A stretch of DNA of 64,000 nt, taken from positions 34,010 through 98,009 of the forward strand of contig JBGUPL010000021.1 of the NCBI GenBank assembly GCA_045130275.1. Direction: 5' to 3'. A model generated the notes under the pieces. That model did not search any database and was not told the DNA's origin. It saw nothing but the letters and a program-made list of their open reading frames with translations. The number at the start of each line of letters is the position of its first letter. Within the stretch, counting starts at the first letter, position 1. The stretch is from Bacteroidales bacterium. GTDB lineage: Bacteria > Bacteroidota > Bacteroidia > Bacteroidales > WCHB1-69. This document shows positions 1 through 63,011 of the stretch, in pieces. Position numbers and translations under genes: made by a program.

Positions 1-76
1 CTAAAATAGAAGGGGAATTGAGGATTACCTGTTATTAACTCTTAACAGCCAATAGCCAATAGCTAACAGCCAACAG

Positions 77-718
77 CTAACTAATAATCAGCTCTTGCCA
101 GCGCACTTTCGGCACGTAATGCGTGCCGTTTTCGTTGCGGTAGTAGGCGTGGCTTTCGGTTGCGGAAATATCCGTCAGCTCGATTTTCTCATTGCCTTTC
201 CCAACGGCAAGGATGAGCACGGGCGGGTAGGGGAGCGCGAACGCCTCTTCGATCTTCTTTGCGTTGAAAGCACCGATAATCAGACCGTTATAGCCTAACT
301 CCGTCGCCTTCAGCAGCATGCTTTGCACGGCGATGCCCAAGTCCACGTGCAACATCTTGCTTTCGGGCACGGTGGTGCAGACGATGATGAAGGCTTTCGG
401 CTCGGTGCCGGGAAATGGCAGGTGCAGCTCCGGCAGCATCCCGCCCAACTTGATGTTTTCCAGCACGATGTCGTCGCCGTTGCCTTCCGTTACCAGCTTG
501 AATCGCAGCGCCTGCTGGTTCTTCGCCGACGGCAACAGCGCATTCACCGCCACCATCTTCTCTAATACCGTCTCCGGAACTTTGTACGCCGGATCATACC
601 CGCGATAGCTGCGGTTCTTCTTCAGCAGCGCGTCCAACGACTGCCCCGCGCTTTTATAAACGACCTTCTGTTTGGATCGGTATTCGTCGAATTTGTTCTC
701 GATATAATTGTCAGCCAC
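77..718 (-). CDS. Nitroreductase family protein
   Basis: KNRSYRGY, PSAKNQQ, DLGIAVQSMLLKATELG motifs. Confidence 0.85.
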   Translation of the reverse strand: MADNYIENKFDEYRSKQKVVYKSAGQSLDALLKKNRSYRGYDPAYKVPETVLEKMVAVNALLPSAKNQQALRFKLVTEGNGDDIVLENIKLGGMLPELHLPFPGTEPKAFIIVCTTVPESKMLHVDLGIAVQSMLLKATELGYNGLIIGAFNAKKIEEAFALPYPPVLILAVGKGNEKIELTDISATESHAYYRNENGTHYVPKVRWQELIIS

Positions 719-726
719 GAATTTTG

Positions 727-895
727 GAATTAAGAATTAAAAATTAAGAATTATGAATTAAGAATTAAGAATGATTAGGAAGTCGAAGTCTAAGTCGAAG
801 TCTAAGTTTAAGTCTAAGTTTAAGTTCTAAGTCGAAGTCGAAGTCTAGTTTAAGTTCAAAGTCTCAAGTCTCAAGTCTCAAGTCTCAAGTCTAAG
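727..895. repeat. Composite micro-repeat spacer (AATTAAG)n + (AAGTCT)n/(AAGTCTC)n
   Basis: Direct reading. Confidence 0.9.
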
Positions 896-2651
896 TATGC
901 AACGTCCGTTCTAATTTCGCGATTTCCGCTGCGGCTTTTTGGCAGATGGGGTCGTCAAAGATGTCTGCGGACGGGGTGGGGAACATCGTGTTGGTCTGGC
1001 GGAATTCGGAAGTCAGGTCCTTCTTCCGCTCTTCGATAACCCGCTCGTAGAATCGGATTTGCGCGTCAATGGCTTCCCGGCATAGCGACAGGATGCGCGG
1101 TATGGTGACCTCGCCGTCGCAAAGGTAATCCAAAATGCAAATGGCATCTTGGAAGTGAATGAAAGAGAAGTTCTCGTCCACATATTCCAGTTGCAGTTCA
1201 TGGCTCTCCTTCAACGAAGAGGCGTTGCAGATGGCGGCCCATTGTTCGGTGGTCAGTACGTTGCCGCCCGCGTTAATCCATTGCAGGTCAGTGTTTTCTG
1301 ACAGCTCTATCAAAGTCTCGGGCTTGTTGTGGAAAACGCCTTCTGCTAAAACATAGCAGAGCATCATCTCGCGGTAGGCGGCGACGGCTTCTTTCTCTTT
1401 CAGGATTCGGATCGGCCGGTTGGACATCTCCATTTCCGGGAGTTCCGCTTCGCCCGCGAGGTGGTGGGAGAGCAGCTGGTGATTCCCCATCACGATATGT
1501 ATGGTATCCGGCGCAAGTGGCCGGTAATCATAATATTGCGTGTATTGTTGGCGTTTGTCGCGGTGTTCGTATTTCCACTCGTTGCGCATCATCGCGTAGG
1601 CGTTGTGCATCCACCAGAAGGCGGGCATGATTTCCAAACAGTTGTCCTTTACATTGTTGTTAATCAACGAGAAAGCGAACGGGATGCGCAGCGGTCGCGG
1701 GTAAGCCCCTTTGGCGATGAGGGCGTAGGGCGCGAAGGAGCAAGGGAAAGCCAACGACGTGCAGAGTCCGGGCCAGAACCCGCGTCCGGCGACCATATCG
1801 ACGTCGTTTTTACGGCCGTTATGGTTGGAGCCGAGGGTCGCACCGGCAGCCACATTGCTTTGCCCTTGGATGTGCGTGGCAATCAGGAACGAGTTGCTGT
1901 GGTGTTGCTCGTGGCACGGATAGAGGAACGAATGCCCGATTTCACAGCCCGCGATGTGGCTGTTGTCACCGATGGCGGACTGATAGACACGCGCCCCTTC
2001 GCTGATGCTGACCTGCTGTCCGACCAGGACATTCGACAGGAAAGCGCGGGAGTCGAGGTGTGCCCCGCGATGCACGATGGTGTTGTGCAGGATGACGGAG
2101 GAACCGATATGGGTGGGCTCTTCCGTCGCGGAGTCGATGTGGGCGTGCTTGATTTCGCAACAGCCCGACAGTATGGCGTTCGATTCAATGTGGGTGTTAT
2201 GGATGGCGGTGACGTTTTCAATGGTCACGTTCTCGCCGATACGGCCCATGGTTTCGGGCTCGGTGTCAGCGTAAAGATTCGGTTTTCCGGTATATAAAGC
2301 GCAGAAAACATCCGTGCTGTTCATGCCGGGCACAGCAGTGACGGTGTGTCGTCCGTCTTCGTTGCAGAGTTCCAGCGGGTAGGAGAATTGTTCTTCAGAG
2401 AAGGTAAGGGATCCGATGTTTGAGAGGCGGGCGTTTGAGCAGATATGATAATTCTCAATGTGCAAAATATTGGACATCAGAACATTGTCCTCAATTCTGA
2501 TTGTCCCATGAAAATGGCAGTTGTGTATGCCTACAATAGAAAAAGTGCAGGCGACTGAAATTTGCCTCCAGTCGTCTGCACTGTTGTTTTGCCGAATCAG
2601 CTGACTGATTTCAGCTTCTGTGAGCGGTCGCCACATAGTGTTATTCGTCAT
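891..2651 (-). CDS. DUF4954 family protein (left-handed beta-helix repeats)
   Basis: HEQHHSNSFLIA, GATLGSNHN, GRGFWPGLC, IMPAFWWMHNAYA motifs. Confidence 0.8.
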   Translation of the reverse strand: MTNNTMWRPLTEAEISQLIRQNNSADDWRQISVACTFSIVGIHNCHFHGTIRIEDNVLMSNILHIENYHICSNARLSNIGSLTFSEEQFSYPLELCNEDGRHTVTAVPGMNSTDVFCALYTGKPNLYADTEPETMGRIGENVTIENVTAIHNTHIESNAILSGCCEIKHAHIDSATEEPTHIGSSVILHNTIVHRGAHLDSRAFLSNVLVGQQVSISEGARVYQSAIGDNSHIAGCEIGHSFLYPCHEQHHSNSFLIATHIQGQSNVAAGATLGSNHNGRKNDVDMVAGRGFWPGLCTSLAFPCSFAPYALIAKGAYPRPLRIPFAFSLINNNVKDNCLEIMPAFWWMHNAYAMMRNEWKYEHRDKRQQYTQYYDYRPLAPDTIHIVMGNHQLLSHHLAGEAELPEMEMSNRPIRILKEKEAVAAYREMMLCYVLAEGVFHNKPETLIELSENTDLQWINAGGNVLTTEQWAAICNASSLKESHELQLEYVDENFSFIHFQDAICILDYLCDGEVTIPRILSLCREAIDAQIRFYERVIEERKKDLTSEFRQTNTMFPTPSADIFDDPICQKAAAEIAKLERTLHT

Positions 2652-3348
2652 CTTCGCCGAGACCGCCGAGCATCTGTTTCAGATCTTCAGGAGCATCCTT
2701 GATGTCCTTGGCATCGGACGGCAAGAGGAAAGCCGAGGGCTTCAGTTTCTTGTCGGGGGTGACCTTGGTTGCGGTGGTGATAATGGTGACGTTTTCGCCG
2801 TTCATTTCCGTCTTCACCTCGGTGGAAAGCGGATAACCCTTCAAGTCAGGATGGTCGAAAGCGTTGATCTCGTCACCGAGTCCCAGTTCGTTGGTGACCC
2901 AGAGAACGACGGAGCTTTCCTCATCCGTTTCAAGATCCGTGACCGTCACGTTGACTTTCTTGCAGTTGTAGCCGGCGATGGTTTTCGTCTCTTCGGTGTA
3001 TTGGTAATCGTATTTCTGGGTGCTTTTCTTTTTCTCCAGATCTTCTTGTTTTTTCTGGATGTAATACTTGCCGTAGCCAGGAATACCCAGAATGATCGTA
3101 TAGGTCTTGTTGTTGCCGTTAACGATGGTTGTCATGTCGATACCCACGTTCATATCCGTACGGTAGCAGTTGCCCATGACGGTGTACTCCACGGATTGTT
3201 CTGCCAATTCTGCAGCGACGTTGGGATCTGAGATACCTTCAGCGGACACCTCGAAGGTGATTTTGCCTGCGAAAGGCTTTTGTGCGAAAGCGCTCACACT
3301 GGCGATCATCATCGCGATGATGGCGAATAAACGGATTGTTCTTTTCAT
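2641..3348 (-). CDS. Secreted DUF4412/GLPGLI-like protein
   Basis: Signal peptide; ETKTIAGYNCKK motif. Confidence 0.7.
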   Translation of the reverse strand: MKRTIRLFAIIAMMIASVSAFAQKPFAGKITFEVSAEGISDPNVAAELAEQSVEYTVMGNCYRTDMNVGIDMTTIVNGNNKTYTIILGIPGYGKYYIQKKQEDLEKKKSTQKYDYQYTEETKTIAGYNCKKVNVTVTDLETDEESSVVLWVTNELGLGDEINAFDHPDLKGYPLSTEVKTEMNGENVTIITTATKVTPDKKLKPSAFLLPSDAKDIKDAPEDLKQMLGGLGEDDE

Positions 3349-3445
3349 TTTTCTACTTATTTTTTTGTTAATACTTTTGCGAAATCAATTCAAACCGCAA
3401 AGATACATTTTTTATTAAATGGTTTAAATAGAGGGGTGAATTTTT

Positions 3446-3622
3446 GACTTGGACTTAGACTATGACTTAGACTATGACTTGGATTTAGATTATGACTTAA
3501 ACTTAGACTATGACTTAGACTTAAACTTAGACTATGGTTTAAGTCATAGTTATTAGTTATAGTCATTAGTCATAGCCATAGTTATTAGTCATAGTTATTA
3601 GTCAGTAGTCATAGTCATTGTC
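3446..3622. repeat. Micro-repeat spacer (GACTTA/GACTAT)n followed by its approximate inverse (AGTCAT)n
   Basis: Direct reading. Confidence 0.9.
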
Positions 3623-3688
3623 ACCTGACATACAATAATTCTCCAATTGTGCCGTTATTCGACCGTTTTACAAACTAAAAAGATAAAT

Positions 3689-5340: not shown

Positions 5341-5430
5341 TGGCGGAAAGTACAGGATTCGAACCTGTGAGAGCTTTTACACCCTGGCGGTTTTCGAAAC
5401 CGCTGCCTTCAGCCGCTCGGCCAACTTTCC
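5341..5430 (-). tRNA. tRNA-Ser (anticodon CGA), CCA encoded
   Basis: Reverse complement GGAAAGTTGGCCGAGCGG..GCGGT-TTCGAAA-ACCGC, long variable arm, GGTTCGAATCC..CCA. Confidence 0.95.
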
Positions 5431-5512
5431 TTTCTCAAATGAGCGCGCAAAAATACATTTTTTTTCGGTATCTCTGAGGATACATGGTTCTTTTTTTTCT
5501 TTTTCGTTTTTA

Positions 5513-5650
5513 AGGCAAAAGGCAAAAGGCAAAAGGCAATAGGCAATAGGCAATAGCAATAGGCAGGCAATAGTGAACAGTGAATGGAGAGTAGTCTAAG
5601 TCATTTGTCTATGTTTAAAAGCCAAAAGCCAACAGCTAACAGCCAATAGC
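5513..5650. repeat. (AGGCAAA/AGGCAAT)n and (AGCCAAC/AGCTAAC)n arrays
   Basis: Direct reading. Confidence 0.88.
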
Positions 5651-5690
5651 AAAAAACGCAGTCCCGGGAAAGTCCAGAACTGCGTTTTTA
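5651..5690 (-). terminator. Intrinsic terminator after pepD
   Basis: AAAAAACGCAGT...ACTGCGTTTTT inverted repeat. Confidence 0.7.
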
Positions 5691-11445: not shown

Positions 11446-12465
11446 CTATTCCCATGCCTTACGAAACCTGATTTGTAGTTCAAGCATCCTTTTCATCAAT
11501 TCATCAAACGTCATGGCCTTTCCGAAAATAAAGTGAAGTTGCATGTCAGCGTAGTCTTCTCGCCAATTCTCCCATTCTTCCTCTGGCGGTAAAAACACGA
11601 TCCTTTGCGGTGTGTGCAGGTCATAATTCACATACTTCAAGTCATAATATGTTCGCCGATGTTCCACTATCCTCTCGTACAATATCTTGTCCTCCAGTGC
11701 TTCCTGTGCAAATTCCGTGTCCATTAGCCGCTCTAAATCATACAAATGTCGGCTCATCCTTTTGTATCTTGGTTTTGACCTTTGGAACTCCTCGCTCAAC
11801 AGAAATACTTTTTCCAAGAATGTACGTGTTGGCACTACTGTTCTGATTCTACACCCCATCTCATTATCCTCATTCGGATAATATTTAGAAATCAGGGTGT
11901 TTAGTTCCAGCTCCTGAGTGGGTTCATCCATTGATAGACAACCAATCTCCACCTTGACACGTGAAGGGATGTACATGGTAGCTTCTTCTACCACACTCTC
12001 GTAATTTACTATCAACACTGTTGGATCTGTATTGCTGTTTATGTGCGATGGCCCATCCTTTGTCATCAATTCAGTCACAGCTTCAACCCAATAGCCAGTT
12101 ATACCCATAGTTCTAAGTTGCTCATCCAGTTCGTCGCGTAGTTGCCCAACTATAAACGCACGAGCTTTGCGGCATAAGTTGTCTCGCTGAAATTTGTTCG
12201 TCCTTTTCATCCCAAAGAAAGAGTGATGCAATGCCACGTCGATATCCTCACTCAAGCGTTCAATCATGCCCCAGCCTTTTGAGAGGCTCGTGCCTCCCTT
12301 GAAACTCAGCGCATGCTTACACGAAGTTTTGAACAGAGCTTTCAACACAGCCGTCACCCACCAATCCTTTTCGATAGCTGAGACTTGCTGTAATCTACCC
12401 TGTTTTGCCACTGATTGCAGAATTACCCTGCGATCATCCACATTTAAGTCAACCCATTTAGACAT
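11446..12465 (-). CDS. AbiEii/AbiGii nucleotidyltransferase toxin
   Basis: IEKDWWVT, FKGGTSLSK, RLSEDID, RTFLEK, SRHLYD. Confidence 0.88.
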   Translation of the reverse strand: MSKWVDLNVDDRRVILQSVAKQGRLQQVSAIEKDWWVTAVLKALFKTSCKHALSFKGGTSLSKGWGMIERLSEDIDVALHHSFFGMKRTNKFQRDNLCRKARAFIVGQLRDELDEQLRTMGITGYWVEAVTELMTKDGPSHINSNTDPTVLIVNYESVVEEATMYIPSRVKVEIGCLSMDEPTQELELNTLISKYYPNEDNEMGCRIRTVVPTRTFLEKVFLLSEEFQRSKPRYKRMSRHLYDLERLMDTEFAQEALEDKILYERIVEHRRTYYDLKYVNYDLHTPQRIVFLPPEEEWENWREDYADMQLHFIFGKAMTFDELMKRMLELQIRFRKAWE

Positions 12466-12467
12466 AA

Positions 12468-13055
12468 TTATAATAATGGTATAATGATTTTTTTCATCCA
12501 GATCGGCATCCGTTGCACATCGGAGCGGAACATCTCTTTTTCCTCATTCAGGCCTATAGCCCTCTTCAGAGCAGATACTTCTTCGTCGCCTATGTTCTCC
12601 TCGCCAGTGGCCTTCAATGCTTGAACAATCAACGCGGCCAGACGGGTCTTGTAGGCAAAATTCCGAGGAACTGCGCGTTTAAGTGTCACTTCAATTCCAT
12701 CAATTGTCAATACTCTTGATGAACCAGATGTGATAAACGTGTGTTTCATAGTTACTTGCACCGATATGCCCAGCATGTTTGCAGCCGTAGCACCAGAAGG
12801 CAGCACCTGCGCATGATCGCGTTGTGCTACCGCATCTACGATCTTGGAAACTGAAGGGTACAGAGGACCGAAAGGTGTTATCTTTGGTTTACAGTAGATA
12901 CCCTTTGAGAGTCGCTTTATCACATCCTGCATTTCCAGTTCAGATAACATTTTGCTCACCTCCTTGTCAGTAGTAATATCAAGAAAATCCGATACAAAAA
13001 AGACGCTCTCTGTAGCCATCTTCTCAATTCTCATTTTCAGAACTTTACGTTTCAT
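12468..13055 (-). CDS. DUF6088 AbiEi-like antitoxin
   Basis: RLSKGIY.KP, AANMLGISVQV; directly upstream of AbiEii. Confidence 0.82.
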   Translation of the reverse strand: MKRKVLKMRIEKMATESVFFVSDFLDITTDKEVSKMLSELEMQDVIKRLSKGIYCKPKITPFGPLYPSVSKIVDAVAQRDHAQVLPSGATAANMLGISVQVTMKHTFITSGSSRVLTIDGIEVTLKRAVPRNFAYKTRLAALIVQALKATGEENIGDEEVSALKRAIGLNEEKEMFRSDVQRMPIWMKKIIIPLL

Positions 13056-13230
13056 TGCGATAATATTTTCGGCTGCAAATATACAAAAATAATGGAGAAA
13101 ACTTTGCAAAAATTTTCTCCGTTATTCGTTTCCTTTTTTTTGCATATTTCTTAATGATTAATGCATAAAGTGTAAATTCTAAGGCGTTGTTTGTTGTTTT
13201 TATCCTGTCTTATGAAAGAAATATATCAAA

Positions 13231-13278
13231 ATGCTATCTTTAGTATGTGGATTTGAGTTGTTTGCTTTCATATTTTTG
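13231..13278 (+). promoter_or_regulatory. Candidate C-box operator and -7 promoter (TATTTTTG) of controller gene
   Basis: ATGCTATCTTTAGTAT-GTG-GATTTGAGTT resembles the bipartite C-protein operator layout; -7 box ends 4 nt before ATG. Confidence 0.45.
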
Positions 13279-13282
13279 CGGC

Positions 13283-13507
13283 ATGAAAAATAGTATTACA
13301 AAGACATTTGGAATCAAGGTGGCTGAACTGCGAAAGAAACAAGGTTTATCACAGGAAGTTCTTGCCGAGATGTGCGGTCTTCATCGTACATATATCGGTT
13401 TCATAGAACGAGGTGAGAAGTCACCTACGCTAAACACTGTTGAAAAAATTATAAAAGGATTAAACATTAATATCAGTGAATTATGGGAAGCAATGCAAAT
13501 CGACTAA
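13283..13507 (+). CDS. R-M controller protein (XRE HTH)
   Basis: LSQEVLAEMCGLHRTYIGFIERGEKSPTL; overlaps REase start. Confidence 0.85.
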   Translation: MKNSITKTFGIKVAELRKKQGLSQEVLAEMCGLHRTYIGFIERGEKSPTLNTVEKIIKGLNINISELWEAMQID

Positions 13508-14085
13508 GAAAAAAATGGCAAGATTATGGCGGATTACATGCCACAACTGCGGAACACTCCTTTATAGAAGTTTTTGATAAAGTGTTTAAAGACACCGAGT
13601 ATAGAGTTTTCAGCCAACCCACATGTTTCAAAGAACTTTACGTAAATGTTCATTTATCAAAAAAGGAATTGGCAGAGATATATACCCCAAAGGAAATAAT
13701 CAAAAAGCATGGTATTCAACCAGACAGTGTTATCGTGAATACAAAAACAAATAAAAGGATTTTTGTTGAAATAAAAAGACAAGATGGATGGGTTGAAGGC
13801 AAACCACGTTCTGCAGGTCGTGGAAATGCCCACGAACGATTGTGCAAATATTTTACACCTGGTTTATTGAAAACCTTAAGAAAAGAAAGTGGCATGCGTG
13901 AGCCAAATTTGCCTTTTTGGATTGTATTTCAAGGAGATATAACACGAGATCCTTGTAGGGTGCGTGAAATTAGATATTGGTTTGACGGCAATGATACTAA
14001 TGTGTTTTTTTGGCGAGATACTTCTGATGCCAAAGAATTAATTGAGCATTTCGAAAATAGAATACTTCCGTTACTCGAAGAGTAA
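13483..14085 (+). CDS. Type II restriction endonuclease, MunI-like (predicted CAATTG)
   Basis: EIKRQDGWVEGK..SAGRGNAHER.CK.FTPGLLK and GDITRDP.RVREI closely match MunI as recalled. Confidence 0.85.
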   Translation: MGSNANRLRKKWQDYGGLHATTAEHSFIEVFDKVFKDTEYRVFSQPTCFKELYVNVHLSKKELAEIYTPKEIIKKHGIQPDSVIVNTKTNKRIFVEIKRQDGWVEGKPRSAGRGNAHERLCKYFTPGLLKTLRKESGMREPNLPFWIVFQGDITRDPCRVREIRYWFDGNDTNVFFWRDTSDAKELIEHFENRILPLLEE

Positions 14086-14097
14086 TAGGGCGGAGTG

Positions 14098-14820: not shown

Positions 14821-14980
14821 TGTTACTTAGTTTTGAACCGCAAAAATACACTTTTTTTAGTTTTTGCCATTCTGAAGAAAGTATTAAATAACGCTTCTTG
14901 TGGAGGTGGTTAATCATATTCAATCGTACCTTCACAATTAAACCGATAATTTTGTATCTTTGCCGACTAATTTTTTGGAC

Positions 14981-46831: not shown

Positions 46832-46852
46832 GCCATTCTCTCAAAAGATAAT

Positions 46853-47764: not shown

Positions 47765-47781
47765 AATAACACCTTGTCAAT

Positions 47782-49420: not shown

Positions 49421-50175
49421 ATTGTAGTCTTTGTCTCTAGGAACTTCTTTTGCAAGTCTGGGCGGCTTGCCACCTGCGGTATTGCTTCCTTATTTTAGCA
49501 AAAGCAAACTTGACACATTAGCGATATGTTTGCCGGAACATTTCTATTCCGGAACATTTCTATTTGTTCTGATTAACATGCTTATTCTCCACCGCCACTA
49601 AAAGCCAACTGGTTGAATTTCTCCACACTGTCAGGATTCAGTTCCCCTGTATTCATATATTATTTTTATTCTTCCACTACGACCACTGGTTACGTTCTAC
49701 TGGAATATAGCGAGAAGGCTTTTGTCGTTCTCTTTCAAGAACCGCATCTCCTCCTCACATCTTTTTATCCCTTTCTCCTCCAGATTCATAACGAAAGAAT
49801 ATTTTCAATATCTGTTGACCTATAAGCACCCTCTGGGCTCCCCCAAGCACAATTCCACTCTCAAGGCATCAAACTATGCCACCACCTAGTTTCCCGTCTT
49901 ACAAGACCATTCCATCCTTGGACGTCCATTAGCATTCTCCCAAAAGCTGTTTCGATGTCATCAGTGATAAAACCAACTATTCCTCCAAGTTTCGAACATG
50001 GAGGCGAATGAGGGATGGCGTTTTACAAACGCTTGAAATCCAAAGCCTTCCGAACCCGGAGGGCTGTTTTTGGATTTTCCCTTGTTTTGCCGACATTTAT
50101 CGCTGCAAAGCTACAGAAAAATTTAATTTCTTTCTGCAAAAAAATCTTAAGATGTTTTTGCATTGGCTTCCACCC

Positions 50176-50226
50176 AATCGAGTATGAGATGAACACTACT
50201 CGGAGGTGGTCACCTCTTTTCGGTTC
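50176..50226 (-). mobile_element. Group II intron 3'-end (domain VI) relic
   Basis: Minus strand CGAAAAGAGGTG..TGTTCATCTCATACTCGATT; homologous to 52823-52870. Confidence 0.5.
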
Positions 50227-50348
50227 GCCCAACATGGAGAAAATTTTGCAATAATTTTCACCATTTCCTCTCTCACCCGATGTTCAATATTAGTCAAATT
50301 TGACAAGTCCCAAAACAAAGTACCAAACAGCTGCCGGATTGCAAGAGA

Positions 50349-51545
50349 CTATTCCTTAGATGACGGTTCTGCGGTTTTTTCTTTGTTTAGCTTCTTCTTG
50401 GCTGACTTCTCCTCTGTGTTTTTTTCTTCAATAACATCCCTCTCCTTTTGAACGGGTTCGGCGGCATTTCCGTCCGGCTGGGTGTTTACCACTCGATAAC
50501 CGCCGGTCTTCTTACTGCCGACATACGTGATACGCTCCTGTTTGCGGAGTTCTGAGAGGCAGCGTTCCACGGTACTCAACGAGTGGGACGTCTTGGCAAC
50601 GATATCGGCTGATTTGCAATTAGGGTGCTTCTGAATACAGCTGAATACTGCTTCTATTGCATCTTTTGGCGGTAAGATCGGCTTCCGTTTCATGTCCCGA
50701 TGTGCAGTTTTCTTGGGAGCCTTTTTTTTGCCCGCTTGTACTCTATAACGCATTATACCTTCAGCAACTATCTCTTCAATTTGTTCCTGGTTTTGGGATT
50801 CCAACTTGAAAGTAATTGCCTCCTCTTGCCAAGGCATTTTTTTCATTATCACCACATTGTCCTTACACGCTCTAATGTGTCGGAACGGCAATAGCGTGGT
50901 GGCTGTTATACGGATGAAATCATCTCCGAGCAGCTGCGCAAGATGCTTCATGGAACCGTACCTTGTGTAATGCTTGTTCTGCACCAAATAAATATATGCA
51001 TAATTACCGTCTTGAAGACAATAAAAGATGTCGTCAATAGGCACAAGAAGAATATTGTGTTCCGAATCTTCAACATCAATTTTCCGAACATCCTGGTAAA
51101 CAACCCGCACCTCTTTTTCCAAAGATTGTTGAAAATGCTTTCGGTCTCGGAGGAGAAAAGGGAAAAAATTCAATGCAATGTTGCGTCCAATAACAAAGAA
51201 AAGAATTCTTGAAAAGAAATTAAAAGAGCCTACCATCTGTATAACTTGTTCATTACATGACACAATGTTATGATACGCAATAGCCATATCCATAATACCT
51301 GTAATGATGGCAATGAGCAACAGAGTCAACCAATAGATGTAATGTGGACGTTTTTGATAAAGCTTTGGATAAAGTAGGAAGTAATTGACATATAGAGACC
51401 CTAACAACAGAAGTCCAGCCAATAATTCTTTAAAATAACTGCCAGCGTATGGGCGCAGAATCGAGTTCTGGGTAAAAAGCCACAATGTGAGGATACAGAA
51501 AATGACATTCAAAAGAATAATGGCGACGGTGCTAAGGTGTTTCAT
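50349..51545 (-). CDS. Membrane-anchored LytTR-domain regulator with C-terminal winged HTH
   Basis: ~4 TMs; DDIFYCLQDGNYAYIY..SMKHLAQLLGDDFIRI; SLSTVERCLSELR..VGSKKTGGY. Confidence 0.7.
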   Translation of the reverse strand: MKHLSTVAIILLNVIFCILTLWLFTQNSILRPYAGSYFKELLAGLLLLGSLYVNYFLLYPKLYQKRPHYIYWLTLLLIAIITGIMDMAIAYHNIVSCNEQVIQMVGSFNFFSRILFFVIGRNIALNFFPFLLRDRKHFQQSLEKEVRVVYQDVRKIDVEDSEHNILLVPIDDIFYCLQDGNYAYIYLVQNKHYTRYGSMKHLAQLLGDDFIRITATTLLPFRHIRACKDNVVIMKKMPWQEEAITFKLESQNQEQIEEIVAEGIMRYRVQAGKKKAPKKTAHRDMKRKPILPPKDAIEAVFSCIQKHPNCKSADIVAKTSHSLSTVERCLSELRKQERITYVGSKKTGGYRVVNTQPDGNAAEPVQKERDVIEEKNTEEKSAKKKLNKEKTAEPSSKE

Positions 51546-51616
51546 TGCGATTCAATTTGATTACGGCGGCAAAAATAAACTTTTTTTAGACAAGTTTCAG
51601 CAGAAACAATAACTAA

Positions 51617-51801
51617 TCGCCTCGAAATTTATTTATCACCTCGAAAAATGAAATTTTAATAGGATTTGTAATACGCTGATCCCCAGTTATATACCCCCCC
51701 CCTGTTAAGGGATAATTTGTGAGAGGCGACATGTTTTTGATTCGAGGCGACATATTCCAGACGGACGGGATAAAATATATTGAAACCAGTTGTATTTTTG
51801 C
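51617..51801. promoter_or_regulatory. Divergent promoter region with GAGGCGA repeats
   Basis: GAGGCGACAT at 51723 and 51744 (21-bp period) before TATTTTTG; opposite-strand pair TC(G/A)CCTCGAAA at 51617 and 51636. Confidence 0.55.
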
Positions 51802-51841
51802 CGTTGAAAAAATAAGAAATTAACATCAAAATCGAAGCGTA

Positions 51842-52066
51842 ATGAAAAAAGTATTGACATTGACACTTTTCGCAGCCATATTATTTGTCGCATGTGAAAA
51901 AGAGAACGTCCAAACGGCAACACAAGGACAAAATCTCAACCGAGTAATTTTGCTACCCGATGAAGAAAAAACAGGAGCACCATCAATTATTTTAGCGTTG
52001 ACAATGGGACATAGCAGTAAAGATTGCAAGGGGTGTATTATGATAGATGCCGGTACGAGCAAATAA
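51842..52066 (+). CDS. Short, probably truncated lipoprotein
   Basis: Lipobox FVAC; CKGC near the abrupt end. Confidence 0.55.
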   Translation: MKKVLTLTLFAAILFVACEKENVQTATQGQNLNRVILLPDEEKTGAPSIILALTMGHSSKDCKGCIMIDAGTSK

Positions 52067-52304
52067 TGCGACTCGGAATGAATTAAACAATTAAAAATCA
52101 AATAGTTGAACAAACATAAACAAAAAAAACATCAACAAGCTGCAACCTTTTGAAAGTTTTGCGTCTTATTATAGAAATATGTTTTAATTTTACAGCGTTG
52201 TTTGCTTATCTTGATGTTTAACGGACTTCGCACCAAGGTCAGCGGCAACGCGAAGAAGTAAAAAATAGAAGTCCCCTTAAGAGCAACGAAAAATCATTGC
52301 TATT

Positions 52305-52796
52305 ATGAAAAAAGAGACAATAAGATTATTATTTTCCATAGCGGCGTTTTTTTGCTGGCTGTCACTGATGTCCGTAGCTTGCGACCCCGCATGTCACGAT
52401 AAGTTTTATTTGAAAAACACGTTGGACACCCCCATCACCTATTCGCAATTCAACACCAAAGACAGCACCCAGCGCAACATAGTCACCATTCAACCAGGAG
52501 AAAGCAAACTGGTTTATGAGTATGTCGGAAGGGATTCACAATTCGAATCTATCGTGTCATCACCTTATTGTGATGAATTACAATTATCTGCCAACAACAA
52601 TTGTCATATGGTCACCTTTTCGGACGGCACTACATGGCAATGGGAATTGTCAAATCAAATCAACATTGACAAGCATCCTTATCTTATAAGATGTTGGAAT
52701 ATTTTGAACTCTTCAAACACAAAACACAGATCTGATTACGAAGTTGAATATGTGGTTGACAGTGTTGATTATCAAAATGCTATTCAACGTCATTAA
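52305..52796 (+). CDS. Hypothetical lipoprotein
   Basis: Lipobox SVAC-DP. Confidence 0.65.
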   Translation: MKKETIRLLFSIAAFFCWLSLMSVACDPACHDKFYLKNTLDTPITYSQFNTKDSTQRNIVTIQPGESKLVYEYVGRDSQFESIVSSPYCDELQLSANNNCHMVTFSDGTTWQWELSNQINIDKHPYLIRCWNILNSSNTKHRSDYEVEYVVDSVDYQNAIQRH

Positions 52797-52822
52797 TATC
52801 TGCATTGTTAACTCATAAATCG

Positions 52823-52922
52823 AATCGAGTAGGAGGTGAACATTGATCAATGATGTTCACCTCTTTTCGTGTTCTGCTGTTCACTCCTCCTATCATGCAT
52901 AAAGTTCTACACATGGCAATTC
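52823..52922 (-). mobile_element. Degenerate group II intron domains V-VI relic
   Basis: Minus strand GAATTGCCATGTGTAGAACTTTATGCATGATAGGAGGAG..CACCTCCTACTCGATT aligns by eye to class IIC DV consensus, mostly via transitions. Confidence 0.6.
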
Positions 52923-53034
52923 TTTCACATTTTGGCTACCCAAATAATATTCTGGGAAGCCAACCAGCTAATCAAACTATTACAGCCTTGATAGGTGCTT
53001 CTTAACTGATTGATTTGAGTGGCAGTATTTTTCA

Positions 53035-53101
53035 AGGGCGACCGGGCACGCTATCCATTCAAACTTCGCGGCAAGCCGCTCGTAACCATTCCTATCGTTG
53101 T
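53035..53101 (+). repeat. 67-bp direct repeat copy 1
   Basis: 65/67 identical to 55388-55454. Confidence 0.92.
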
Positions 53102-53194
53102 CGCTTTTTTTTCAACAAACTGCAACCTTTTGTTTTTTTTGCATCTTATCCATACAGAGCGGATTATTTTGTAATTTTGTGCCGCGAAAAGACG

Positions 53195-54304
53195 ATGAGA
53201 CCGAACCGCACATATAGCCCATGTCTCCCGCAGACCGCGCAGATTTCCGCAGAGATTCTCCGCGCGGATACGCGTGATACGCGAGATACGCGGAGATTCC
53301 TTGCGCGACACGCGGTGTCTTTTTCAATTTCAATTCCTAATTCCACATTGCTAATTCCTAATTGGACCCGCCACCCCGACCACCTCGGCTCAGCCTCGTG
53401 GATCACCAACATCTACGGCAGAACAATCCAGCATTTGTACTACCTGCCATACGGCGAAGACTTGGTGAACCAGCAGCACACGGCTGTTGGTGCCATGTAC
53501 ACTTTCAGTGCCAAGGAGAAAGATACAGAAACTGGCTATTCCTACTTTGGTTCACGCTACTACAACTCTGACTTGAGCATTTGGTTGAGTGTGGACCCGA
53601 TGGCGGACAAGTATCCGAGTATGAGTTCGTATGTGTATTGCGCGGACAACCCGGTGAAGTTGGTGGATCCGAATGGGGAAGATTGGGTTGAGCGTGAGGT
53701 GGAAGGACGAAAAGAAGTTTATTATGACAGGTCTGTCAAATCTCAGGCTGATGTAAACAAAAAGTATGGAGAAAGTTCTGGCGTAAGGCATCTTGCAGAT
53801 GGGACAAAAGTTGGCAATGGTCAATACACCGTTTACAATGACCATAAAGGAAACAAAAATGGTGTTGTGAAAGACGCTAACGGAAATACTATAAATCCAG
53901 ATAGAACAATAATTTACGGAAAAGGTTATACTCTTTTTGCTGGTGTGACAGATGAAAGTGTTAATGCGGAATCTTTACACAACAATATGTTTGGTTCTAG
54001 TTATATTGGCGCAGATAATCCCAAAAGCTATAATGGGGAAGACAATTATGATTATCAACCCACATGGAGTCCAACAGAAATGGCGGCTTATCGTCACGAC
54101 AAGGCGTATGATGCAGTTGGAGCCGAAGGAGTGTCAGGAGCATTGTTAAACCAACGCACAAAATGCGCAGACCAATGTTTAATTTATGAGTGTAAAAAAA
54201 TTGCAAAAAACCCTAAAATAAACACATCAGAAAGAAGTAGAGCGAGAAAAATCGCTTTTGGTTTTTCCTGTATAGATTTTATATTTAAAACACCACGTTT
54301 TTAA
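53195..54304 (+). CDS. Orphan Rhs core + C-terminal toxin (PLA2-like)
   Basis: HPDHLGS, YLPYGE, KEKDTETG, RYY, NPVKLVDPNGED; tip has YIGADNP..AAYRHDKAYD..ADQCL. Start codon uncertain. Confidence 0.8.
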   Translation: MRPNRTYSPCLPQTAQISAEILRADTRDTRDTRRFLARHAVSFSISIPNSTLLIPNWTRHPDHLGSASWITNIYGRTIQHLYYLPYGEDLVNQQHTAVGAMYTFSAKEKDTETGYSYFGSRYYNSDLSIWLSVDPMADKYPSMSSYVYCADNPVKLVDPNGEDWVEREVEGRKEVYYDRSVKSQADVNKKYGESSGVRHLADGTKVGNGQYTVYNDHKGNKNGVVKDANGNTINPDRTIIYGKGYTLFAGVTDESVNAESLHNNMFGSSYIGADNPKSYNGEDNYDYQPTWSPTEMAAYRHDKAYDAVGAEGVSGALLNQRTKCADQCLIYECKKIAKNPKINTSERSRARKIAFGFSCIDFIFKTPRF

Positions 54305-54312
54305 AAAGCAGT

Positions 54313-54873
54313 ATGAAAACAATGGGATACTTGAATAAATCCATTAAGTTTCTTTTTTATATTGTTATTGTTGGAACACTGTTTTATATAGTGTGGGCCT
54401 GTTTTTTTGTCGCCACTTTTCATGGAGACACATACGGTAAATCGGAAGCATACGTAATTGATATTAATACAAATACGAGTGATAGACCCCTTAATTCTGC
54501 TGACATCCTTGATTTATTATATGGTTTTCAGTCTTCGCATCCTCAATTTAAATTAATGGACACAGATACACAAGGGAATATATATCATAACTTTTCAGAT
54601 AAAATAGATAACCGAAACGATCAATATTTGGTTTTCTTCTATATGAAGGATATTAATTTAACATTCTCTTGTGTAACTGAAGTTACTTCTAAAAATCATC
54701 CTTTAATAAAATTGTATGCCATTAATGAAGGTTCTGTGTTTCGTCATTGGGAGAGAATTAACAACTACAAGGAAATATCTCGCAAAAAAAACAAGGTAAT
54801 GAAGAAAAAATTTGAAACTGAGATTTTAGATGATTTGGGTGTAAAATGGAGGCACAGGAGGTTTTGGGACTAA
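54313..54873 (+). CDS. Putative membrane-anchored immunity protein
   Basis: Starts 8 nt after the toxin stop, AT-rich, N-terminal TM. Confidence 0.55.
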   Translation: MKTMGYLNKSIKFLFYIVIVGTLFYIVWACFFVATFHGDTYGKSEAYVIDINTNTSDRPLNSADILDLLYGFQSSHPQFKLMDTDTQGNIYHNFSDKIDNRNDQYLVFFYMKDINLTFSCVTEVTSKNHPLIKLYAINEGSVFRHWERINNYKEISRKKNKVMKKKFETEILDDLGVKWRHRRFWD

Positions 54874-54975
54874 AAATATTGCCTCACAAAGCAGATGTAT
54901 GAATGCATTAATGATCTAAATCAATTGGATTGTCGTTCAAACCAAATATTATTCATTCTCAAAAACATTAAAAAA

Positions 54976-55374
54976 ATGAAAAAAGTATTTTTTATCCTGG
55001 CGATAGCATTCGCCGCAGTAACAGCAATGACCTCTTGTTCCGACAAGGAGGTGACCCGAGAGTCTTTCATCGGAACTTGGGAGGTTACGTCTTATCAAGA
55101 GAAACCCACTTCCGGTACAGAGTGGAGAGATATGCTTGATGGTGGCATGACGCTCACAGTCAAAGCAGACGGAACCTGTCTCATCCAATATTCGGATGGC
55201 TCATCGGAAAATTCCCCTTGGGCATACGACGAAAGCACAAACAAGCTTCTTATTATGTTCCAAAATTGGACGGTGCAGAAATGTTCCAAAAAGGAAATTC
55301 AACTCTATTGTGACGAATTTGCAGACACTTACCTTGCTGAGGTTCAACGCGCCACGCTAAAAAGAGTCAAGTAG
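54976..55374 (+). CDS. Lipocalin-like lipoprotein
   Basis: Lipobox MTSC; FIGTWEV; TLKRVK end. Confidence 0.7.
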   Translation: MKKVFFILAIAFAAVTAMTSCSDKEVTRESFIGTWEVTSYQEKPTSGTEWRDMLDGGMTLTVKADGTCLIQYSDGSSENSPWAYDESTNKLLIMFQNWTVQKCSKKEIQLYCDEFADTYLAEVQRATLKRVK

Positions 55375-55387
55375 TTCTTTCTTTTTC

Positions 55388-55454
55388 AGGGCGACCGGGC
55401 ACGCTATCCATTCAAACTTCGCGGCAGGCCGCTCGTAACCATTTCTATCGTTGT
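55388..55454 (+). repeat. 67-bp direct repeat copy 2
   Basis: Matches 53035-53101. Confidence 0.92.
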
Positions 55455-55511
55455 AGCGGAATCAAGGACGTGGAAAACGCATTCGACCATCATGAATGCG
55501 TTTTCCACGTT

Positions 55512-55970
55512 TATAGTATCTATTGCTACCCGAAAACAGACACGGACTTGGGACTGGGTGTCATCTATCCCGGTTTTGATGAGATTGCCCAGGCTATTGC
55601 CAAACGTGACAAGGCTCAGATCGTTCCTGCGGGCGCATACGCCGTGAACAAATTGGGACTCAGCACACAGGTGCCTATGAATGTCGTTTTCCTCACCAGC
55701 GGAGAAAGCCGCAAAGTTGTGATACGTAACGGCAGAGGCATCCTCTTCAAACATGCCGCGCCGAGAAATTTCGCGTTTGAGAATTCTTTCGCCCAACTCC
55801 TTTCGGTAGCACTCAAGGAAATCGGGAAAGACAATCTCGATTCCGAGCAAAAAAACACGCTCAAACGCATTCTCCATGAGCAACCGCGCATATCGGAAAA
55901 AGATTTGAGCCTAATGACTGTCTGGATTAGAAAACTTATAAACGAATTGTATGATGAATGATTTATGGCG
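55512..55970 (+). pseudogene. N-truncated DUF6088 antitoxin, plus first codons of a possible AbiEii
   Basis: IYCYPK..AIAKRDKAQIVPAGAYAVNKLGLSTQVPM; overlapping ATGAATGATTTATGG, then homology lost. Confidence 0.7.
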
Positions 55971-56487
55971 AAAAGTTGCCATTTGGCCAGCTATTGGAGC
56001 GAATCCAAGAACTGGAGGCGCGTTTCCACACCTTACGGCATTAGAACCTTGATGTCTCGCACTCGTAGGCTCAGCACGACCGATTTATTCTTATCTTATC
56101 ATAATTATCATATTCAGACTTCTTGTTTTCCACTATCTTTATGATTGTCAATCATTTATAGGGGTTTTCGTATGTTAATATGGCTTGGCAAAAGTACACA
56201 AAAAATACTGACACTTCATCAGACAACAAGGAAACAGTCATCCGTCTGGCAGGAAACTCTGCCTATTAGATTGCTATTCCTTGCAACCATGAGTTTTACG
56301 CCTTCTACGACATTGCCGCACCTTAAACCTTAAACCCTTAACATCTAAACTCTATTAAACTTCCCACAATAATTTCGACACTTCCGCGTTATATCTCAGT
56401 TTGTCTGACGCACCTCGCTGGAACTGGAGGCGCACTGTGTGATCTTATATCGTATAATAATTGTATAAACCTATAATTCAAGCCATT

Positions 56488-58147: not shown

Positions 58148-58388
58148 AATTATGTAATTTAATTGTGATTATTTTTGAATGATTAATTTGACGGTGGCAA
58201 AAATAAAAAATCTTCGATTTGTTGTTACAATGAATTTTGGGTTAGATGGTTAGAAGGTTAGGAGGTTAGAAGGTTAATGGGGTAGGGATGGTGGTAAACG
58301 GCTTATTGATAGTGAATTGCAAAATTATGAAACAAAACACACACGATTACGGAATTTTTTTTGTATTTTTGCGGGTTGAATTAGTGAA

Positions 58389-58469
58389 TGGTTATAGGTT
58401 ATAGGTTATGGGTTATTGAAGCCAATAGCCAATAGCTAAAAGCCAAAAGCCAATAGCCAATAGCTAAAA
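58389..58469. repeat. (GGTTATA)n + (AGCCAAT)n arrays
   Basis: Direct reading. Confidence 0.88.
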
Positions 58470-58504: not shown

Positions 58505-59167
58505 ATGGATAAAAATCAAATGAGAGAAATCATCGCCAAGAGAGTTGCGAAAGAACTCCATGACGGCGATGTGGTGAATTTGGGAATCGGTCTGCCGACC
58601 ATGGTTCCGAACTATCTGCCTAAGAACGTGAACGTTATCCTGCAATCGGAGAACGGTCTGCTCGGTATGGGCCCGACACCCGCCGAAGGTCAGGAAGACG
58701 ACAACCTGGTGAACTCCGGCGGCGGTTACATCACCGCGCAGCCTGGCGCCGTCTCTTTCAGCTCCGCCGACTCTTTCAGCATCATCCGCGGCGGTCACGT
58801 CGATGTGACGGTCCTCGGTGCCATGCAGGTGGATGAGCAGGGCGACCTCGCCAACTGGATGATCCCCGGCAAGCTTACCCCCGGTATGGGCGGCGCTATG
58901 GACCTCCTCGTGGGTGCCCGCAAGGTGATCCTCGCAATGGAGCACACCCAGAAAGGCAACCCGAAAATCCTCCACAAATGCAATCTGCCGTTGACCGCCA
59001 AAGGCCAGGTGAACCTCATTGTCACCGAGATGGGCGTGATGGAAGTCACCGACAAGGGCATCGTCTTAACCGAAATTTATCCTGAGTTCACGGTTGAAGA
59101 TGTGCAGGCAGCCACGGAAGCCACGCTGATCATTTCGCCGAACTTGAAAAAAATGGAAATTGATTAG
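58505..59167 (+). CDS. 3-oxoacid/butyrate CoA-transferase beta subunit
   Basis: VNLGIGLPT, QSENG, GMGGAMDL. Confidence 0.9.
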   Translation: MDKNQMREIIAKRVAKELHDGDVVNLGIGLPTMVPNYLPKNVNVILQSENGLLGMGPTPAEGQEDDNLVNSGGGYITAQPGAVSFSSADSFSIIRGGHVDVTVLGAMQVDEQGDLANWMIPGKLTPGMGGAMDLLVGARKVILAMEHTQKGNPKILHKCNLPLTAKGQVNLIVTEMGVMEVTDKGIVLTEIYPEFTVEDVQAATEATLIISPNLKKMEID

Positions 59168-59253
59168 GCAAAAGGCAAAAGGCAAAAGGCAAAAGGCAAA
59201 AGAAAACCCAATGGGAGGCATTACTATTGCCTGTTGCCTGTTGCCTGTTGCCT
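59166..59253. repeat. (AGGCAAA)5 ... (TTGCCTG)n inverted arrays
   Basis: Direct reading. Confidence 0.88.
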
Positions 59254-62261: not shown

Positions 62262-62271
62262 TGATTCACTC

Positions 62272-62301
62272 TGTAGAGACGCAATGCATTGCGTCTCTAC
62301 A
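62272..62301. repeat. Perfect 30-bp GTAG-type REP-like palindrome
   Basis: TGTAGAGACGCAATGCATTGCGTCTCTACA. Confidence 0.8.
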
Positions 62302-62320
62302 TTGTTTTTGAACGGATTAA

Positions 62321-62980
62321 ATGATTGAGGTCAAAGAAATTGAGAAATCCTACGGCAGTTTGCAGGTCTTGAAGAAGGTTTCCCTGTCGATAGAGAACAG
62401 CAAAGTCGTGACGATTGTCGGTCCTTCCGGGGCCGGCAAATCGACGTTGTTGCACATCATCGGCACGTTGGACAAGCCGGATAGGGGAGAGGTGGTCATT
62501 GACGGCGTGAATCTCAACAGCTTGTCCGACGACAAGTTGGCGGAGTTCCGCAACCGGCATATCGGTTTCGTCTATCAGTTCCACCATCTGCTGCCCGAAT
62601 TCACGGCGCTGGAGAACGTGGCGATGCCCGCGCTCATTGCGGGAAAGAGCCGAAAGGAATCCTTTAAGAGAGCGCAGGAACTTCTTGATTTCTTGAAACT
62701 TGCGGATAGGGTAGGGCACAAACCCGCGCAATTGTCGGGAGGGGAGCAGCAACGTGTTTCCGTGGCCCGGGCGCTGATGAACAACCCCGAGCTGATCCTC
62801 GCCGACGAGCCCTCCGGCAACCTCGACACCGAGAACGCCCGCAAGCTCCACGACCTTTTCTTCGTCCTCCGCGACACCTTCAAGCAGACTTTCCTCATCG
62901 TCACGCACAATGAAGAGTTGGCGCAGCTGTCGGATCGGAAAATTGTGCTGCAAGACGGTTCTGTAATTGATAATGGATAA
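62321..62980 (+). CDS. lolD: Lipoprotein-releasing ABC ATPase
   Basis: [36 protein letters not shown]. Confidence 0.8.
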
Positions 62981-63011
62981 TTGATAATTGATAATTCTTA
63001 ATTCTTTATTC

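Follow-up and report, generated by a model that had tools for sequence, protein, structure and literature searches.

Tandem arrays in the spacers of the window

The window, as we call the whole 64,000-nucleotide stretch analysed here (GenBank GCA_045130275.1, contig JBGUPL010000021.1; G000:C21:34010-98009 in our numbering), belongs to G000, the genome of an uncultured rumen bacterium of the order Bacteroidales (3.19 Mb in 134 contigs, 50.6% GC, 96% complete). Its genes, among them those for the type IX secretion system (T9SS) regulator PorX, glycyl-tRNA synthetase (GlyRS, glyS) and galE, are separated by spacers that hold short tandem repeats, which we found to be part of a genome-wide and genus-wide population of heptanucleotide arrays in the non-coding spacers of the resident (non-island) chromosome. 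PorX marks the genome as belonging to Bacteroidota, and the closest named GlyRS relatives are from Bacteroidales metagenome-assembled genomes of yak, sheep and goat rumen; 12 ruminant gut metagenome runs contain at least half of the words sampled from a 9.9-kb stretch, and 6 RNA runs contain small shares of them.

Arrays were called by Tandem Repeats Finder (TRF) on the window and genome-wide, with overlapping rows removed for counts, and gene positions came from a crude caller based on open reading frames (ORFs; 2682 genes, 90.3% coding), the main polarity result being repeated without gene calls. Of the 34 non-overlapping arrays of period 6-8 in the window, 31 lie outside called genes; the arrays occupy 19 spacers (Table 1). 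An initial annotation made from the sequence had reported arrays in about 20 spacers, and TRF returned rows at every coordinate set that it named; its descriptions of unit families in both orientations (found genome-wide, by family) and of spacers joining two families (several, at 727-896, 33249-33356, 35113-35216 and 58390-58464) hold as well. The spacer at 35107-35221 is made of almost nothing but arrays from stop to start, and many window spacers are like it.

Table 1. Tandem arrays and associated features of the window, by unit family and then by position
Feature	Position	Strand	Basis and remarks
AGCCAAT-type arrays	44-81, 5617-5655, 58420-58464		TRF
AATTAAG arrays	727-772, 35113-35144		TRF
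AAGTCT hexamer arrays	780-896; 3446-3533 and 3542-3623 (these two mutually inverted)		TRF
AGGCAAW arrays	5512-5565, 33323-33356 (as CCTATTG), 59166-59202 and 59227-59253 (inverted)		TRF
TAACCWT/GGTTA arrays	16804-16875, 26741-26781, 29499-29604, 35148-35216, 35846-35913, 58240-58276, 58390-58416		TRF
GATAATK arrays	32130-32233, 62964-62996		TRF
AATGTAG arrays	22304-22333, 31318-31348, 33269-33293		TRF
AACAGCC/AATAGCC array by 3' end of nitroreductase-family gene (77-718, minus)	44-81		5.4 copies, 83% matches; Pfam
(GAATTAA)6.6 then (AAGTCT)18.7, occupying whole spacer of two minus-strand genes	727-896		TRF, sequence reading
Inverted hexamer arrays (GACTTA arm, AGTCAT arm); long hairpin in divergent spacer upstream of porX	3446-3623		TRF, fold
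tRNA-Ser (CGA)	5341-5430	minus	Two arrays in its upstream spacer
AAGGCAA array (5512-5565) and AAAAGCC array (5617-5655)	5512-5655		Between tRNA-Ser and 3' end of dipeptidase gene
(TAACCTT)10, G-free, structure-free leader; last base 1 nt before glyS start codon	16804-16875	plus	TRF, fold
Short CCATAAA array directly upstream of HerA-like ATPase gene start	20689-20709	plus	TRF
GAATGCT/ATGCAGA array from stop codon of gene 20715-22304 onward	22304-22333	plus	TRF
TTATTGG array in divergent spacer	26741-26781		TRF, G018 comparison; same family in G018, +14 nt
(GTTAATG)15 array, begins 11 nt before stop of transglutaminase-like gene	29499-29604	plus	TRF, Pfam
AATGAAG/AATCTAG array spanning stop 31319 to start 31340	31318-31348	plus	Same family in G018, 10 nt shorter
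(TGATAAT)15, C-free, fills spacer before galE	32130-32233	plus	TRF
Three arrays in one spacer: AATTAGA, GAATGTA (C-free, after stop), then CCTATTG (before start)	33249-33356	plus
(GAATTAA)n from stop codon, then graded CCCTAAA, CCTTTAA, CCATTAA array up to start	35107-35216	plus	CPA2 antiporter/HAD-like spacer
(TTAACCA/TAACCTT)9.7, G-free, before lpxL-like start	35846-35913	plus
Short ACCTTAA array at edge of low-GC island	56320-56341	plus	TRF
Divergent spacer with GGTTAGAA (8-mer), GGTTATA and AGCCAAT arrays	58240-58469		TRF
Gene-less array hairpin: (AGGCAAA)5.3, 24-nt loop, (TTGCCTG)3.9	59166-59253	plus
TAATTGA then TAATTCT arrays bridging two genes	62964-63011	plus	G018 exactly +7 nt

Genome-wide abundance and placement

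Period 7 dominates the genome-wide TRF output with 829 rows (26 per 100 kb), whereas periods 6 and 8 account for 149 and 197 rows; the period-7 rows reduce to 797 non-redundant arrays. Intergenic DNA totals 307.9 kb, of which arrays of period 7, 14, 21 or 28 cover 27.1 kb (8.8%), and the spacers hold 591 period-7 rows compared with 6 when the same spacers are subjected to mononucleotide shuffling. The intergenic share of array bases is 83% for period 7 and 15% for period 9. Arrays occupy 362 of 1639 co-directional, 65 of 307 divergent and 56 of 291 convergent spacers (about 22% each). They lie close to gene ends: 296 of 735 array-to-stop distances fall within -21 to +3, so that the stop codon usually lies inside the first unit, and 155 of 746 array-to-start gaps measure 1-14 nt, these arrays being G-poor in the sense strand and matched by an equally large set at stop codons.

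The presence of arrays follows the GC content of the flanking genes, from 1 of 62 spacers below 44% to 179 of 696 at 48-52%, 221 of 557 at 52-56% and 34 of 93 in the next bin up. In agreement with the scarcity in AT-rich islands that the initial annotation had described, the sole period-7 row in window positions 37000-56000 is at 53332-53363, within a called gene, and the sole period-8 row is at 52081-52113. Low-GC islands (38-44% GC), nearly free of arrays, extend over 12000-16000 and 38000-56000, and one island ORF (53015-54304) has an RHS repeat-associated core domain.

Several familiar kinds of repeat were set aside. The copies run head-to-tail without the unique spacers of clustered regularly interspaced short palindromic repeats (CRISPR), a 7-nt period is unable to stay in frame as a protein-coding repeat, and phase-variation contingency loci were dropped given arrays in every orientation class at the same frequency. 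An Rfam search of the window at the gathering score matched a tRNA-Ser (5344-5430) alone and no RNA family in the array spacers. At ten paralogous gene ends (contigs C31, C76, C112, C103, C85 and C13), presumably T9SS C-terminal sorting domains as judged from their translation, a CAATGTA-type array lies within 60 nt of each and may stand inside, or replace the end of, that putative domain. The (CCCTAAA)n/(GTTTAGG)n arrays at 35148-35184 of the window and at G000:C133:19084-19138 have the unit of the plant-type telomere repeat, which we take to be a coincidence.

A unit repertoire shared within the genus

The units of the 797 arrays reduce to 157 canonical forms, 39 of which occur in at least five arrays. 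Base composition predicts 803 effective unit classes and the arrays have 75, with the top units enriched 10-120x, and when units differing by a single substitution are joined, 788 of the 797 arrays fall into one network. In loci of same-genus relatives (~327 kb), 76 of 118 period-7 arrays use the 39 common units of G000, compared with 2 of 136 in G057, a genome from another Bacteroidales family with a GC content of 0.51 as in G000 (440 kb sampled), and with 7 of 64 and 3 of 24 in further families. G057 is as rich in heptamers as G000 (137 period-7 rows in the 440 kb) and builds them from different, GC-richer units (AACCGGC, AAATCGT, ACCCGAT). A repertoire shared by the genus yet nearly disjoint in G057, with its matching GC content and heptamer density, is the strongest argument that local slippage alone is insufficient. 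The earlier suggestion that the same few units at unrelated loci speak against slippage alone stands as far as recurrence goes, although slippage still contributes, as the length differences between relatives show.

Turnover at orthologous spacers

Those differences were read mainly against G018 and G041, which have the highest DNA identity among the matches listed for G000 and were compared at 8 and 2 orthologous array sites, respectively; G041 (~96% identity) is collinear with the window at just two array sites, so that short-term rates rest on few sites. Orthologous arrays differ in length by -7 nt (G041) and by +7 and +14 nt (G018), and such whole-unit steps together with mutation of the units are the signature of strand slippage. 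Larger changes occur as well. Unit switches relative to G018 and G041 are seen at 32130 and 59166; at the former, (TGATAAT)15 is replaced in G018 by a ACGATGAG 8-mer array plus a CACTAAT-type array. The 106-nt array at 29499 is found in G000 only, where the segment measures 126 nt, against 25 nt in G018. Among ten same-genus genomes with proteins 75-97% identical, the spacers of the antiporter, HAD-like and lpxL-like genes differ from genome to genome in unit, copy number and length, and the antiporter/HAD spacer measures 29-205 nt. The TAACCTT array before glyS (72 nt) is without counterpart at four loci with 86-93% GlyRS identity (L131-L134), in which a few bases and no array separate the upstream stop from the start codon. 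The unit switching that the initial annotation had envisaged at orthologous spacers is therefore seen in same-genus comparisons, and the arrays at a given site turn over completely within the genus while the unit set is inherited by the lineage.

A plain explanation for these results would be that the arrays are neutral microsatellites made by local duplication and slippage, with the repertoire, the polarity and the hairpins described below being by-products of what spacers tolerate, and gene cassettes landing in hairpins that were already there. The whole-unit steps agree with this, as do the graded variants within arrays (from CCCTAAA through CCTTTAA to CCATTAA at 35148-35216), the single connected network of units and the register of many arrays with the stop codon. 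However, universal rules of tolerance do not predict a repertoire that is common within the genus and almost missing from G057, and the glyS array arose where relatives have a spacer of a few bases and no visible seed. We regard neutral microsatellites as a possible but doubtful account, against which two further observations are given with the hairpins and cassettes.

Strand asymmetry of the arrays

Most units occur in both orientations relative to transcription, with moderate biases, and a clear signal emerges once arrays are classed as G- or C-type and by side of the spacer. In the 5'-to-3' direction, a strand that runs out of a gene contains G and is poor in C, and one that runs into a gene contains C and is poor in G, at gene starts and gene ends alike. 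Of all arrays, 429 of 797 are nearly devoid of one base, mostly C or G. In gene sense, arrays after stops have 11% C and 23% G (146 of 364 without C, 30 without G) and arrays before starts have 9.7% G and 22% C (108 of 230 without G, 41 without C), whereas array-free spacers have no comparable G/C contrast. On the plus strand, the left side of spacers carries 193 G-type and 50 C-type arrays and the right side 172 C-type and 52 G-type, a pattern present in all four orientation classes and weakest in divergent spacers (42:23 vs 323:79, Fisher p 0.009). Neighbouring pairs taken without any gene calls run G-then-C in 67 cases and C-then-G in 3 in G000; loci of the same genus give 14:0, and G057, which obeys the rule less strictly than G000, gives 14:3. 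In the window, 17 arrays are concordant, including the C-type array 44-81 at the right edge of its spacer, and 5 are discordant, at least two of which fill entire spacers of 7-20 nt. Triplet content differs as well: a stop triplet is present in 285 of 364 units after stops, against 208 with the units inverted, and a start triplet in 44 of 230 units before starts, against 94 when inverted.

Such regularities could mean that the arrays are selected RNA elements, the G-free arrays before starts serving as structure-free and start-codon-free landing pads for ribosomes, and the C-poor arrays and hairpins after stops insulating cistrons, resisting Rho loading or stabilising the upstream message. Bacteroidota are not known to rely on Shine-Dalgarno pairing to initiate translation, and the 103-nt glyS leader (16774-16876) has a predicted folding energy of only -0.3 kcal/mol. 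The G-poverty before starts, the avoidance of start triplets there and the enrichment of stop triplets after stops point the same way, as does the weaker polarity in divergent spacers. However, close relatives manage without arrays at the same sites (a few bases before glyS; ~30 nt between the antiporter and HAD genes in G008 and G004), about 78% of spacers are array-free, island genes have no arrays and non-array spacers lack the polarity, which together argue for tolerance rather than need. We therefore think selection for RNA function an unlikely explanation of the arrays as a whole.

Hairpins built from inverted arrays

Neighbouring arrays are inverted copies of each other in 28 of 165 pairs, against 7.3 expected (maximum 18 in 500 permutations), with loops of 3-86 nt in 24 pairs and of 414-510 nt in 4. 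When each of 460 array spacers was folded and compared with a control in which one array was reversed, 42 had an array-dependent stability of at least 10 kcal/mol and 7 changed as much in the opposite direction, which suggests that hairpins, as a rule starting at the stop codon, account for roughly a tenth of array spacers. The predicted fold of 3430-3640, upstream of porX, reaches -74 kcal/mol (z -7.4), which none of 200 shuffles matched, and that of 59166-59253 reaches -39.9 kcal/mol (z -4.7). In each of the 28 inverted pairs, read by eye, the G-richer arm comes first, and because of this a polarity built into a hairpin element has to be considered as a source of the strand rule. It is mathematically equivalent at gene edges to a transcript filter, and both fit. 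The triplet counts speak for the filter, and so does the weakening of the rule in divergent spacers, whose arrays may be untranscribed.

The hairpin at 59166-59253 lies between genes for a CoA-transferase (ctfB) and an acyl-CoA dehydrogenase (acd): it begins within the TAG stop of the former and is followed by ~40 nt of unstructured sequence and the start of the latter. Of 27 same-genus spacers readable at this site, 17 fold with z <= -3, 14 of them by inverted repeat arms, 2 by a palindrome of the repetitive extragenic palindromic (REP) kind and 1 by a short stem. The inverted arms come from at least five families of tandem units (AGGCAAA, AGTGATC, AGACTTW, a GGTAAAD 8-mer and AGTTGAG), the array-built stems begin at or shortly after the stop codon, TAG in most, and the ~40-nt leader before the next start is conserved in closer relatives. 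Position and structure are kept at this site and sequence is not, both arms swapping units together. Retention of a hairpin across species despite sequence change (17 of 27) is what selected RNA elements would give. The same spacers count against neutral microsatellites, since the units differ by species, each is a common unit genome-wide and most are anchored on the same TAG.

Across the genus, REPs and array hairpins substitute for each other at the same site. Three REP-like palindrome families lie beside arrays (window 35783-35826, ~22334-22400 and ~18440-18475): type 1, CTACC.AGCTCTTGCCCC...GGGGC..CTCAAGG, is retained at the orthologous spacer in 6 relatives, type 2 reads CCCCTTCT...AGAAGGGG.GCCCG and type 3 GTAGAGACGCGCC..GGCACGTCTCTAC.

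Arms that carry one unit and switch together could also arise by templated end-extension, in which a telomerase-like or slippage-prone polymerase adds repeats at the free 3' ends of breaks in spacers. The mirror symmetry of the strand rule about the spacer, whatever the orientation of the genes, and the lineage-specific repertoire would follow from such a process. However, reverse transcriptase (RVT_1, PF00078) and Ku gave no match in the 96% complete G000 under searches whose controls were positive, no candidate template RNA was found, and most spacers join units that are not complementary. We consider end-extension highly improbable, and with neither protein found and none of the conserved flanks of a classical mobile element around the arrays, the mobile or templated process proposed in the initial annotation is not borne out.

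Four-helix-bundle gene cassettes

That annotation had also pointed to a link between heptamer arrays and four-helix-bundle genes, while stating correctly that the window has none. G000 has 8 full-length and 2 partial matches to TIGR02436, the protein of 23S rRNA intervening sequences (23S-IVS), none of the 10 on contig C21. The link is real in this genome: seven of the 8 full-length genes lie between inverted copies of one unit, whereas arrays flank 153 of all 2682 genes on both sides (5.7%; binomial p 1.5e-8). The arms of the seven consist of six simple units and one complex arm of 34-48 nt, and in all 8 cassettes the minimum-energy fold pairs the two arms with each other, over 22-61 bp. In the best-scoring four-helix-bundle gene of each of 29 other families of the order, arrays of 6-8 nt units are present on both flanks in 17, on one in 7 and on none in 5, and are strictly inverted in 11. 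Arm units are shared by 4 of the 19 protein pairs with 50% identity or more, compared with 8 of the 234 pairs of lower similarity (p 0.008), and the four sharing pairs are non-syntenic, with no common flanking genes. In this respect too neutral microsatellites fall short, as arm units accompany related four-helix-bundle genes to non-syntenic sites. Moreover, among 20 genomes of the order, each from a different family and sampled for at most 40 kb, period-7 arrays number 7 in 359 kb for the nine that lack the gene and 40 in 400 kb for the eleven that have it (one-sided Mann-Whitney p 0.001).

One cassette site of G000 could be followed across the genus. It holds the cassette in 7 genomes, an internally deleted remnant in 1, a 37-nt collapsed palindrome in 1, a gene-less hairpin of another common unit in 5 and a REP-like palindrome in 3 (G033, G018 and G046); of the remaining 13 loci, 2 are incomplete, and the spacers of the other 11 measure 5-72 nt and lack any such element. 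At L223 (G017:C16), orthologous to G000:C133:39483-39962, a 177-nt spacer keeps the first ~15 and last few codons of a four-helix-bundle gene between intact arms, an internal deletion that offers a route by which gene-less hairpins can arise. At G000:C110:32240-32641 (L002), the four-helix-bundle ORF has no stop before its (CAACAGC)n arm and reads on into it, which makes an open frame of 410 aa; as AACAGCC units are stop-free on both strands, this arm may encode a repeat tail. A single partial match represents the GxxExxY family (TIGR04256) in the genome, and TRF has no row within 600 nt of it. G000 has an RNase III homologue, which scores 160.6 bits, under the cut-off of 166.25.

Each heptamer could be the site of a single-strand binder (a four-helix-bundle, cold-shock or S1-type protein) and the arrays a regulatory network of binding tracts. 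The six simple arm units and one complex arm of the seven array-flanked genes and the tendency of related proteins to share arm units are compatible with this, and the available text of MacGregor 2015 (PMC4679880) proposes such binders for TAACTGA repeats. However, units are replaced at orthologous sites although the neighbouring genes are the same and the flanking proteins 97-100% identical, most units occur in both orientations, and 157 canonical units (39 common) would face ~8 candidate proteins. Binding tracts, which the initial annotation had also considered, fit poorly with this and are an improbable explanation.

Instead, the arrays might stem from a spreading family of IVS-like hairpins, as its arms, half-arms and degenerate copies, with a single gene for a four-helix-bundle protein (23S-IVS/Avd family) that recognises its own arms or helps to make them; the resident cassettes would then set the arm repertoire, and the G-type-first polarity would be built in. 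If true, this would explain the dominance of heptamers among bacterial long repeats and give a common protein family a function, and we put it forward as a speculative reading that is rather unlikely to hold in full.

Origin and maintenance of the arrays

The explanation that we favour, with moderate confidence, is that slippage-shaped arrays are seeded from the lineage's own arrays, and that the strand rule reflects a transcript filter that leaves translation-neutral filler and a subset of hairpins. New arrays would mostly be seeded from existing arrays of the lineage and not from local sequence, through the hairpin cassette and its gene-less derivatives, through fold-back or template-switch copying, or through recombination between arrays. 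Slippage would afterwards expand, shrink and mutate what was seeded. Arrays that place start triplets or G-rich tracts before a gene, or that lack stop triplets behind one, would be lost, so that the survivors would be translation-neutral and mostly structure-free filler, and the hairpin subset may act as RNase-III-type or stabiliser stem-loops between cistrons. Most likely, then, the arrays are tolerated, self-propagating filler under transcript-level constraints.

Several observations weigh against this explanation. About 377 of the 460 array spacers have no array-dependent folding, and in the window hairpins occupy 2 of 19 spacers, so that the cassette and hairpin route directly explains a minority only. 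Among 1395 array flanks, 247 resemble another flank, and these are accounted for by a motif containing TTTGC, which we take to be a Bacteroidota promoter element, by the three REP-like families and by paralogous gene ends; the arrays thus have no conserved flanks or target duplications of a classical mobile element, such as a MITE (miniature inverted-repeat transposable element) or a REP. A search for stretches of irregular unit order shared between arrays gave no clear case of recent copying between loci: the longest shared stretches, of 83 and 62 nt, are mixtures of two variants and of a size compatible with chance, and one is probably a single locus on two contig ends. The lack of conserved flanks and of proven copying is what neutral microsatellites would show. 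Beside tRNA genes, where start and stop codons have no role, 6 arrays are concordant with the strand rule, 1 is discordant and 4 are neutral (a small sample, p 0.13), which does not fit a purely translational filter; a rule that holds there favours something more general. The correlation of array density with the gene comes from 20 small samples, with G057 supplying 16 of the 40 arrays, and the gene boundaries come from the crude ORF caller.

If the cassette link is causal, a widespread protein family gains a function and the heptamer excess a mechanism; if not, the arrays are a natural experiment on the sequences tolerated in bacterial leaders (5') and trailers (3'). For the assembly and binning of rumen metagenomes they are, in addition, a practical hazard.

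Comparison with known repeat systems

Heptamer repeats have been known for decades in scattered bacterial lineages, without an agreed cause or role. The short tandemly repeated repetitive (STRR) heptamers of heterocystous cyanobacteria comprise several tandem heptamer families spread across the intergenic DNA of one lineage, in a different phylum and, to our knowledge, with other units than those found here. REPs and bacterial interspersed mosaic elements (BIMEs) occupy the same niche as many of the arrays, just after stops between co-directional genes, and replace an array hairpin at an orthologous site in relatives; unlike REPs, which are single conserved palindromes, the arrays are tandem, without conserved sequence and mostly unstructured.

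The arrays belong to the known class of heptanucleotide long simple sequence repeats (LSSRs). As summarised in the available text of PMC4679880, LSSRs (Mrazek, Guo and Shah 2007) have units of 5-11 nt, heptamers being the most abundant, are mostly intergenic and lineage-sporadic, and are ascribed to slippage, their function being unknown. The arrays of G000 share with them head-to-tail units beyond chance, the dominance of period 7, the scarcity in coding DNA of units not divisible by 3 and slippage in copy number; they differ from LSSRs as described there in their extreme density, genus repertoire, strand rule, inverted hairpins and link to cassettes. The TAACTGA repeats of MacGregor 2015 (PMC4679880), according to the same text, occur in marine Beggiatoaceae, some Cyanobacteria and five Bacteroidetes, with close relatives lacking them. 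They too are intergenic heptamer arrays. Those of the TAACTGA system often end a few bases before a start in fixed orientation, and some Bacteroidetes have longer arrays and other heptamers. In contrast to that system of one unit, with related heptamers rarely repeated as far as its available description goes, G000 has 157 units, also at stop codons, and TAACTGA (canonical AACTGAT) is outside its 60 commonest.

The closest parallel to the cassettes is the 23S rRNA IVS with S23p of Coxiella burnetii, in which, as the accessible part of PMC4990558 describes it, a four-helix-bundle ORF lies in the loop of a 28-bp terminal stem cut by RNase III; IVSs that bear an ORF are regarded there as selfish and horizontally moved. 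In eight G000 genes outside the window, an S23p/PF05635/TIGR02436 ORF likewise sits in a long inverted-repeat stem. Unlike the IVS as described there, the G000 elements lie between protein genes, their stems consist of tandem heptamers, and gene-less forms, the only ones in the window, are far commoner. The window hairpins at 3446-3623 and 59166-59253 share the long inverted-repeat stem of the IVS type, whereas the other 17 of the 19 array spacers of the window do not.

In open full text, leaving subscription journals and database family notes aside, we found no paper that joins heptamer arrays with the four-helix-bundle family or gives the strand rule. An extreme genome such as G000 turns the heptamer puzzle into testable regularities, namely a strand rule, an inherited repertoire, hairpins kept by site and a link to four-helix-bundle genes. 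Relative to the published accounts that we found, it is the genus repertoire, the mirror symmetry of the strand rule, the switching of units in hairpins and the tie to cassettes that go beyond what has been described for heptamer repeats.

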